From an uncultured delta proteobacterium (GTDB lineage: Bacteria; Desulfobacterota; RBG-13-43-22), in assembly GCA_963711835.1 (NCBI GenBank), contig CAVQFQ010000016.1, positions 1 through 64,000 of the forward strand: DNA of 64,000 bases, read 5' to 3'. Shown here in pieces: positions 1,589 to 21,738 of this stretch; within the stretch, counting starts at the first letter, position 1; each line of letters starts with the position of its first letter. Both the position numbers and the translations under genes were made by a program. The notes below the pieces were generated by a model. The model had not been told where the DNA came from and ran no database searches. It saw only the letters and a list, made by a program, of their open reading frames with translations.

Positions 1589-1888
1589 GGAGTTTGTCTC
1601 AACGTTACATGATTTTTAAACACTCCATTCGTGGAGGGCTTCGGGGGTCTTGATTTCAAGGTTGTCCGCCAAAACATCAGCAGCCTGATCCCGGGCAGGA
1701 AGTTTATAGGTGGATTTAGAAACAGGCCAACACCAAAGCGATTTATCGTTTTGGGTGAATGCCCGGCTCCCAACCAACTTAGAAATTCGGGCCGGGTTGG
1801 GGCTATGGATACCCTTTCGGACAATCCTTGAAATCAAGACCCCTGAAGCCCTTCGGTTTGAGAATCACGTAACGTTGGGACTATCCCC
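1589..1888. repeat. nested long-inverted-repeat element, copy 1 (structured ncRNA or MITE/REPIN-like)
   Basis: Outer arms 1596-1621/1856-1881; inner arms 1636-1668/1818-1851; flanking direct repeat AAAATA. The inner module is homologous to the reverse complement of 20662-20876. Confidence 0.8.
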
Positions 1889-20635: not shown

Positions 20636-20923
20636 GGGTCTCATAATAATAGTGACCAACAGGGACCGGGGGGTCTTCTTTTCTGGGGTTGTCCAAAGGG
20701 TAACTCATCGCCCTATCCCGGCCCGGACGGCTAAGTGGGTTAGGTGCAGGGCATTCACTCAAGTCCGTTTCGGGCATTAGTGTAGGCCTGTCTCTGAATT
20801 AGATCCCGAATTTGGCCCGGCAAAGAAGCTTTGGGCTTGAAGGTGGACAACCCAGAAAAGAAGACCCCCCGGTCCCATTTAAGGCAAGCTCCTCAATTTC
20901 ATGTCAAGACTATTATGAGACCC
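20636..20923. repeat. nested long-inverted-repeat element, copy 2
   Basis: 13-bp outer IR gggtctcataata/tattatgagaccc flanked by TTA on both sides; inner arms 20662-20695/20844-20876; inner module homologous to 1636-1851 in reverse. Confidence 0.8.
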
Positions 20924-20931
20924 TTAATAAA

Positions 20932-21144
20932 ATGAGAGAAATTGAAATTTCTGAAGAGCCCATTGAGCTCTATAAAATCTTGAAGTTCGGAAATATGGTC
21001 GCAAGCGGCGGCGAAGCGAAATATGTGATTGCCGAAGGTCAAGTGATAGTCAATGGGAAGATCGAAACCAGAAAGCGAAAAAAGATCTTTTCCGGTGATG
21101 TGGTTGAATTCGGAGAAAATAAAATTCGTGTAAAAGTCAGATGA
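20932..21144 (+). CDS. S4-domain RNA-binding protein (YaaA/YbcJ-like)
   Basis: PIELYKILK...SGGEAK..I.EGQV.VNG..ETRKRKK. Confidence 0.9.
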   Translation: MREIEISEEPIELYKILKFGNMVASGGEAKYVIAEGQVIVNGKIETRKRKKIFSGDVVEFGENKIRVKVR

Positions 21145-21254
21145 TCCTACTTTGACGGATGAGATGTGGATGGAAGGGGCCAGGGCTAACTTTGACGGCA
21201 GGATCATCGTCGGCAAAGACCTTATGGAGTTATGAAGGGGAGTTGCCTGAAAAA

Positions 21255-21332
21255 GGTGAAAAAATAAGAATTATTTCGGTAAGGCGCTCCAGAAAAGAGG
21301 AAATTAGGATCTATGAAGGCGAAGGAATTTGA
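21255..21332 (+). pseudogene. BrnT toxin C-terminal remnant
   Basis: GEKIRIISVRRSRKEEIRIYE*, overlapping the antitoxin start; the N-terminal part is absent. Confidence 0.75.
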
Positions 21333-21534
21333 TAAACGATTTGACGAAGGCAAGGATATTTCCGAATATCTGGAATTATCCAAAGCCAGGAGGAGCGGCC
21401 GGGAGCAAAAAAGAGTAACTGTGGATTTTCCCTTATGGATGGTCCATCTATTGGATAAGGAATCAAAACGTCTGGGCGTGCCCAGGTAATCCATCATCAA
21501 GGTCTGGGTGGCAGAGCGCCTCGAAAAGGGATAG
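21313..21534 (+). pseudogene. BrnA/CopG-type antitoxin with a premature stop
   Basis: MKAKEFDKRFDEGKDI...KRVTVDFPLWM...RLGVPR*SIIKVWVAERL; TAA at 21487. Confidence 0.8.
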
Positions 21535-21738
21535 TGACCAGTCATTAACTTGACTACCAAAGAACAATACCCTAAAATTAACCAATAGGCATGCCTGAAG
21601 AAATCAGGGAGATTGGGCCAGGACAAAGGGCTAAGAGACAAACTTTCCACAATGACTCAAAAATGAAGTTGGCAATTTCTGGCCAGGAACTGTACTCCAA
21701 AAAGAGTTAAATCTATAATCCAGGAAAGGAGAGAAACC

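Follow-up and report, generated by a model that had tools for sequence, protein, structure and literature searches.

A constrained, invertible passenger in miniature mobile elements of seven end types across one family of Desulfobacterota

Two segments of a 64,000-nucleotide stretch from an uncultured delta proteobacterium (hereafter the window), at 1636-1851 on the forward strand and 20662-20876 on the reverse strand, fold into long hairpins and resemble each other. What are they, where do they end, and why do the paired bases of their arms change together? A first-pass annotation, made from the letters alone, had taken them for one structured module in two diverged copies, either a multicopy non-coding RNA or a mobile single-stranded hairpin of the REPIN kind. 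Homology between the two segments, here called copies a and b, is borne out by 74% identity along 131 nt of interior. Each copy closes with a 33-bp terminal stem and is very stable (folding z of -9.1 for a and -9.7 for b, with none of 200 shuffles as stable), the differences between their arms are mirrored on the opposite arm just as had been claimed, and there is, again as claimed, no conserved reading frame among copies. A bulge in the stem had been described as lying on the same side in both; the extra base is indeed found in the 3' arm of a and b, but its side switches among other copies. The module is a real feature. It was, however, wrongly bounded: the true unit is larger, and each module lies inside a mobile element, laid out in the window as follows.

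1311-1569, no strand assigned: separate element with terminal inverted repeats, outside the module; 259 bp, two copies in the genome, 99% identical
1582-1589, forward: left 8-bp target-site duplication of carrier A (CAAAATAG), matching 1888-1895 at 8 of 8 positions
1590-1887, forward: carrier A, a MITE with terminal inverted repeats that holds module a; 298 bp, with an empty allele
1636-1668, forward: left arm of module a; 33 bp, inner end TTGTCC, strand-switch joints 1668/1817 and 1669/1818 in contigs
1669-1817, forward: invertible interior of module a; 149 bp, boxes starting near 1691, 1722, 1761 and 1789
1818-1851, forward: right arm of module a, with one extra base
1888-1895, forward: right 8-bp target-site duplication of carrier A, matching the left one at 8 of 8 positions
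20636-20923, reverse: carrier B, with another inverted-repeat end, holding module b; 288 bp, TTAA-rich flanks on both sides
20844-20876, reverse: left arm of module b, from the fold and the alignment of arms
20696-20843, reverse: interior of module b; boxes starting near 20820, 20791, 20752 and 20724
20662-20695, reverse: right arm of module b, with one extra base

At copy a the carrier bears the marks of a MITE: terminal inverted repeats, no coding content, many copies, a target duplication and an empty allele. The last of these came from a search for empty sites, which had been proposed as a check and yielded one, for copy a: in a contig of sequencing run X20, position 1310 is followed by seven letters and then by 1888, the duplication is present once, and this allele also lacks the 1311-1569 element. 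A loose contig end in run X1 matches the same joint. For copy b no empty allele was seen in the contigs of the sequencing runs; the inverted ends of its carrier are present in 17 copies, and loose contig ends at 20635 and 20929-20932 mark the boundaries of the carrier B family. Short ORFs adjoin copy b (20899-21650, reverse strand), two of them without a Pfam match, and related DNA copies show loose ends nearby. A motif found upstream of both copies had been offered as a hint of transcription. Since its instance at 1553-1569 is the right end of the 259-bp repeat and that at 20891-20907 lies inside the end of carrier B, the likeness is no evidence for a shared promoter. The 259-bp element itself holds an internal palindrome and has its second copy at C14:47077-47335; its ends presumably recall IS1380-type repeats.

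Nor is this a two-copy feature. An iterated profile search of the window's genome gives 162 matches, 105 of them near full length, which add up to 26,998 bases of 3.9 Mb; a simple ORF finder places 104 of the 105 near-full copies outside ORFs. A covariance-model search finds the module in 18 of 20 other genomes of the same family and in none of 136 genomes belonging to other families of that phylum. Match counts from this family-wide search include both strands of one hairpin, have an upper cap and are not copy numbers; the latter span from none found to more than 100 among family genomes. Plasmid and phage collections, searched in distant mode, gave no match, and of 12 pattern matches in viral contigs none scores as the module.

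Throughout these genomes the module is a passenger, carried inside miniature mobile elements of seven end types. In the window's genome a carrier end was assigned by motif to 102 of 105 copies, the other three being carrier-like by eye, and in four relatives to 90 of 93, giving 192 of 198 in all; at two loci of the relatives (L757 and L767) no carrier ends are recognisable and the boxes described below are eroded. Types A, B, C and D were defined by end motif in the window's genome, where two copies have F-like ends by eye, and E, F and G are contributed by relatives. Among copies with both ends found, seven or more of the eight duplication positions match for carrier A in 21 of 31 and for carrier D in 22 of 27, and carrier G likewise has 8-bp duplications. 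Carrier C has no terminal inverted repeat, carries TAG at both ends and exists in short forms.

One of these types can be traced to a known family. The end of carrier D is the end of three full-length elements encoding ISH6 transposases (464-486 bits against a cut-off of 240), and together with its 8-bp AT-rich duplication this marks it as an ISH6-derived MITE, the target duplication of ISH6 being an AT-rich 8-mer according to PMC3942029. In its terminal repeat, its duplications and its want of an ORF carrier D is like the ISH6-family MITEs (p-MULT 2, Mutator superfamily), which carriers A and G resemble in their 8-bp duplications. Autonomous ISH6 elements differ: the three full-length elements that share the carrier D end are without the module, and the module also occurs in six other end types, one of which (C) lacks terminal inverted repeats altogether. 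No ISH6 gene was found in the window's genome, an assembly that is 89% complete, and no ISL3, IS256 or IS1595 transposase either. Autonomous partners of carriers A, B, C, E, F and G were not found; for carrier A the search covered the window's genome, 351 genomes and viral contigs. The viral contigs also hold no ends of carriers A or G, and isolated carrier ends in the window's genome led solely to eroded half copies.

Interiors move between carriers, as can be seen from a tree of 63 interiors that needs 13 carrier changes where the minimum is six (support is rough) and from nine D copies with an A-type interior. Carrier forms that lack the module exist in the window's genome, and their junctions vary and lie at short repeats, as expected for deletion of a hairpin. 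Such deletion forms with duplications, and forms in which other palindromes have taken the place of the boxes, occur in several copies. Where the arms of the module join the carrier we find neither duplication nor homology.

The carriers have a varied life of their own. In other families A, B and C are found with unrelated palindromes as passengers. Carrier C is a unit of about 80 bp, which other families have either almost empty or filled with various unrelated palindromic repeats (L239-L310; C26:3500-3680 in the window's genome). In a carrier-A-like element of another family (L626:1500-1845, genome G301) the passenger is a different one; its short inverted arms terminate in TTATCCACA / TTATCCAGA, a word of the DnaA-box type that resembles the inner arm end of the module. 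In another genome many elements combine the ISH6 end with a different common interior (L129, L134, L137, L140 and others). At C16:105776-106060 a carrier A is inserted in the end of a carrier C, with an 8-bp duplication. About a dozen carrier-A copies have a common 47-bp insertion after the fourth box (C22:34857-35118, C17:360819-361089 and others), and in other copies interior segments are swapped for short CCGCC...GGCGG palindromes, several copies each. One module copy (L027:1489-1707, genome G008) sits between two ORFs that by eye resemble ribosomal proteins L22 and S3, so that the module appears to be tolerated in a ribosomal-protein operon.

Why, then, do the arms change in step? Across 45 homologs, two-sided changes occur in 26 of 38 predicted pairs, all of them within the arms. 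This arm covariation is DNA copying, that is, homogenisation of one arm by the other. First, 19 of 61 singleton arm variants among 103 copies of the window's genome are mirrored on the other arm, keeping in mind that the B and C alignments are noisy at homopolymers. Second, measured against the asymmetric carrier ends, the interior occurs either way round (19:9 in A, 12:3 in B, 11:7 in C and 23:3 in D). More importantly, in two of eight orthologous pairs (L473/L486 and L738/L758) the interior is inverted between species at the same insertion site, and it is this in-place inversion that ties the covariation-like signal to the copying of DNA. Mirrored private mutations, target duplications, the empty allele and in-place inversion together uphold two suggestions of the first-pass annotation, arm homogenisation and mobility.

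The inversions do not share a point of exchange. Among 28 carrier-A copies, some crossed over on one side of the bulge and some on the other, and a polymorphic base likewise has crossovers to both sides, which leaves no room for a single recombinase site; eight combinations of bulge side and polymorphic base are seen beyond the two that a fixed crossover point would allow, and these contradict a site-specific invertible switch. The fim and hin switches, res sites and the Mu enhancer are familiar examples of invertible switches and of multi-site recombination or enhancer sequences. Like them, the module has a segment with phased boxes that inverts between two repeats; unlike them, it has crossovers scattered over the arm and no recombinase seen next to it, and it is present in many copies within mobile elements. 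It may also bear some resemblance to attC sites, to half-sites of resolvases or invertases, and to oriT.

What the interior conserves is a set of short words. Four boxes, CCGGGCC, GCAGGCC, GCCCTGC and GGGCCGG, are kept in two clades of the family whose interiors are about 41% identical, a figure for which part of the alignment is off register. In the 78 of 82 interiors that were parsed, typical spacings are 21-23, 29-31, 39-40, 28-31 and 21-22 bp in both clades, with an interior length near 149. This layout is two-fold symmetric, each half consisting of an arm end, a box and a box at steps of about 30 bp. Several words had been called invariant on the strength of copies a and b; the four boxes hold family-wide, the other words do not.

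The boxes are constrained and depleted of variants. In the three largest interior clusters of the window's genome, which comprise 62 of the 105 copies, shared derived alleles number one in 75 box columns versus 59 in 174 other G/C columns, and singletons run at 5.8 per 1000 in boxes versus 17.8 elsewhere (p = 4e-4), a test that is not wholly independent, since copies of this genome were among those aligned when the boxes were first spotted. Between the members of the eight orthologous pairs, differences fall at 6 of 224 box sites versus 53 of 971 others (p = 0.057). In two old orthologous pairs two boxes apiece are gone, and old retained copies have lost boxes and kept arms. With spacing fixed, spacer sequence free and no covariation, an array of proteins on DNA fits the interior better than an RNA does.

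The reading we favour, with a probability of roughly 0.55, is that the module is non-coding passenger DNA in MITEs mobilised in trans, and that its boxes form a putative symmetric protein-binding array which would favour the copying of the carrier. The carriers would be moved by transposases supplied from elsewhere. Homogenisation of the arms and inversion of the interior might both come about by polymerase template switching or by recombination between the arms, and recombination at shared arms could likewise exchange interiors between carriers. Template switching has been reported to give both outcomes in yeast, with spacers of 2-5 bp and bacterial cases cited (PMC8604942); that it extends to a spacer of 149 bp is something we infer. 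The boxes may act on double-stranded DNA, each half offering three sites at intervals of about 30 bp, in the manner of a transposition enhancer that would bend or bridge the two carrier ends. Several findings count against this proposal: the module is dispensable for the spread of carriers, as the multiplied module-less and box-replaced forms indicate, six of the seven end types lack an autonomous partner in our searches, the window's genome yielded no ISH6 gene, the arm junctions give no trace of how a carrier was entered, and L757 and L767 are without recognisable carrier ends. Moreover, the depletion of singletons in boxes and the trend in orthologous pairs could instead reflect selection at the level of the host.

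Might the module move by itself? It could be a hairpin element that works as single-stranded DNA, like a REPIN or a TIRtron: a Y1 HUH transposase would excise it and insert it in the middle of a MITE, with the boxes and arm ends serving as recognition sites. A long near-perfect hairpin with no duplication at the arm ends would be consistent with such an origin, repeated entry into new carriers is easiest explained by a self-moving module, and the palindromic passengers that carriers A, B and C hold in other families point the same way. The window's genome has 12 Y1 matches, and Y1 genes are present in all five module-bearing relatives tested. However, no Y1 locus that we examined carries the module, which is how the proposed check for a co-occurring HUH or RAYT transposase turned out: the module profile has no match in any of 118 Y1 loci, among them 8 of the 12 in the window's genome, the arm profile reaches E = 3.4 there at best, and the upstream flanks of 11 of those 12 have no module beside them.

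Comparison with two known hairpin systems leads to the same place. Going by PMC3337134, the REPINs of Bertels and Rainey are like the module in having inverted arms around a spacer, a hairpin, intergenic positions, about 100 copies per genome and a range of one lineage; the module, too, is an inverted doublet that forms a long hairpin and is intergenic and multicopy. REPIN spacers vary, by the same account, whereas the interior of the module is conserved in length and boxes and the whole is nested in other elements. Independent insertion and excision are not seen either, given that 192 of 198 copies are inside carriers (at most two or three of the 198 examined are without carrier ends), no precise empty carrier was found, and the junctions of module-less forms vary. 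Because the module is nearly always inside a carrier with ends of its own, and in view of the Y1 loci, the earlier suggestion of a free REPIN-like unit is not borne out.

TIRtrons and their TIRYT genes (TnpA-REP subclass 2.1; PMC3733652 and PMC6006769) resemble the module in that the arms have the words GGGGTC and GGTCTTG in common with TIRYT inverted repeats and TIRYT genes occur in these genomes. The motif GGGGWSAS given in PMC3733652 is nevertheless missing from the arms, which read GGGGTCTT; TIRYT flanks show no match to the arm profile at any better score than the above, and no arm-gene-arm element was found. To judge by sequence, the resemblance appears to be one of words only. Long Y1 genes of the TIRYT type with GGGGTCAG terminal repeats are common (L001, L002, L311-L390), and at L352 and L354 the TIRYT repeat contains TTATCCAC, which bears on whether the DnaA-like C-terminal domain reads the ends. 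On balance we consider it rather unlikely, at perhaps one chance in five, that a Y1 enzyme moves the module.

A different possibility is that selection acts on the cell and not on the element, with a replication protein or an organiser of the chromosome binding the dispersed copies on behalf of the host, as at REP or BIME clusters. The breadth of the module across the family (18 of 20 genomes) would agree with this, as would the scarcity of singleton variants in boxes, the similar trend in orthologous pairs, and inner arm ends, TTGTCCACC and TTGTCCAAA, that are two to three mismatches from the DnaA box consensus quoted in PMC6006769. Yet positions turn over, given that of 33 parsed copies of genome G007 five have an ortholog among 28 parsed copies of genome G004 (a subset of the copies in each case). 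Copy number, moreover, falls to none found in some family members and exceeds 100 in others, and the two old orthologous pairs have each lost two boxes. A role as host sites is accordingly one that we regard as improbable.

The first-pass annotation had leaned in part on two inner hairpins that seemed to covary, and the idea can be developed into a functional rod-shaped RNA in which the boxes form two pairs within the long closing stem. Boxes 1 and 4 and boxes 2 and 3 are complementary and nested inside the arms, the fold is very stable, and contigs from RNA libraries cover the module. Those contigs show neither level nor strand and pile up relative to the flanks about as DNA runs do. Both inner hairpins can be drawn in copies a and b themselves, but in 45 homologs they fail as covarying structures: 74.4% of positions are paired where shuffling gives 74.9%, and the covariation score is matched by 241 of 500 shuffles. 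Candidate interior helices have zero to two two-sided changes, the box pairs have none, and the top pairs by mutual information are arm pairs. The consensus fold of 55 dereplicated interiors comes to roughly -4 kcal/mol, and the folds obtained for the two clades differ. The module lies sense to co-directional genes 29 times and antisense 33 times, and arm mismatches of the G-U type (39) are in no excess over those of the A-C type (33). With covariation confined to the arms, neither strand favoured relative to flanking genes and G-U-type mismatches in no excess, the multicopy RNA put forward earlier finds no support, and in-place inversion of the interior speaks against it as well. The statement that the module is no known RNA family stands: Rfam gives no match at gathering score in the window, chance matches at E<=10 for both copies, and no match for five homologous loci. 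In size and long closing stem the module is similar to 6S; unlike 6S, SRP, tmRNA, RNase P and the other families of Rfam, it has neither an Rfam match nor covariation in its interior, and is mobile and invertible. The feature behind the two segments is probably not an RNA, and the rod in particular is very unlikely.

Two further candidates were rejected. A decayed coding fragment is at odds with lengths that vary in all three phases, open frames that differ between copies and the absence of any Pfam match for five open frames. As for an IS110/IS1111 bridge-RNA element, interiors fit their own flanks no better than those of other carriers (4 of the 11 interiors were over-trimmed into the arms), no bridge-RNA guides were found in the module interior, and both IS110 loci of the window's genome are without the module.

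Least probable of the readings considered is a functionless relic of the two ends of an extinct transposon, with boxes that look conserved through gene conversion and a few master copies: it would suit an arrangement with two-fold symmetry, such as two element ends joined together would have, the existence of module-less carriers, and interiors that, where correctly trimmed, are mostly more self-complementary than shuffles, though one is not, but gene conversion would not spare the boxes specifically, and boxes and spacing persist while spacers diverge to about 41% identity.

Returning to passenger DNA in trans-mobilised MITEs as the preferred reading, what does it mean for these genomes? The carriers are ordinary; a constrained, invertible passenger that occupies seven end types across a family is not. 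MITE interiors are usually regarded as inert filler, and here one interior is common to seven end types, is repeatedly exchanged between them and shows selection on a phased array of boxes family-wide. In the literature searched, which was a partial collection, we found no report of a MITE passenger shared among end types and, with similarly partial coverage, none of non-autonomous ISH6 MITEs. There is a warning here for RNA discovery, in that strong, multi-state 'covariation' in a long stem can stem from homogenisation of arms at the level of DNA. We would venture further only tentatively, and with less than even confidence, to see in the module a second-order genetic parasite that lacks ends of its own, hops from one transposon chassis to the next by recombination at its self-correcting arms and is kept across the family as a portable enhancer of transposition, its phased boxes recruiting a protein to the benefit of the carrier it happens to occupy. 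If the boxes do raise transposition, the module would be a portable cis-enhancer serving different transposases, and, if that is true, why some MITE families reach hundreds of copies would become a testable question.
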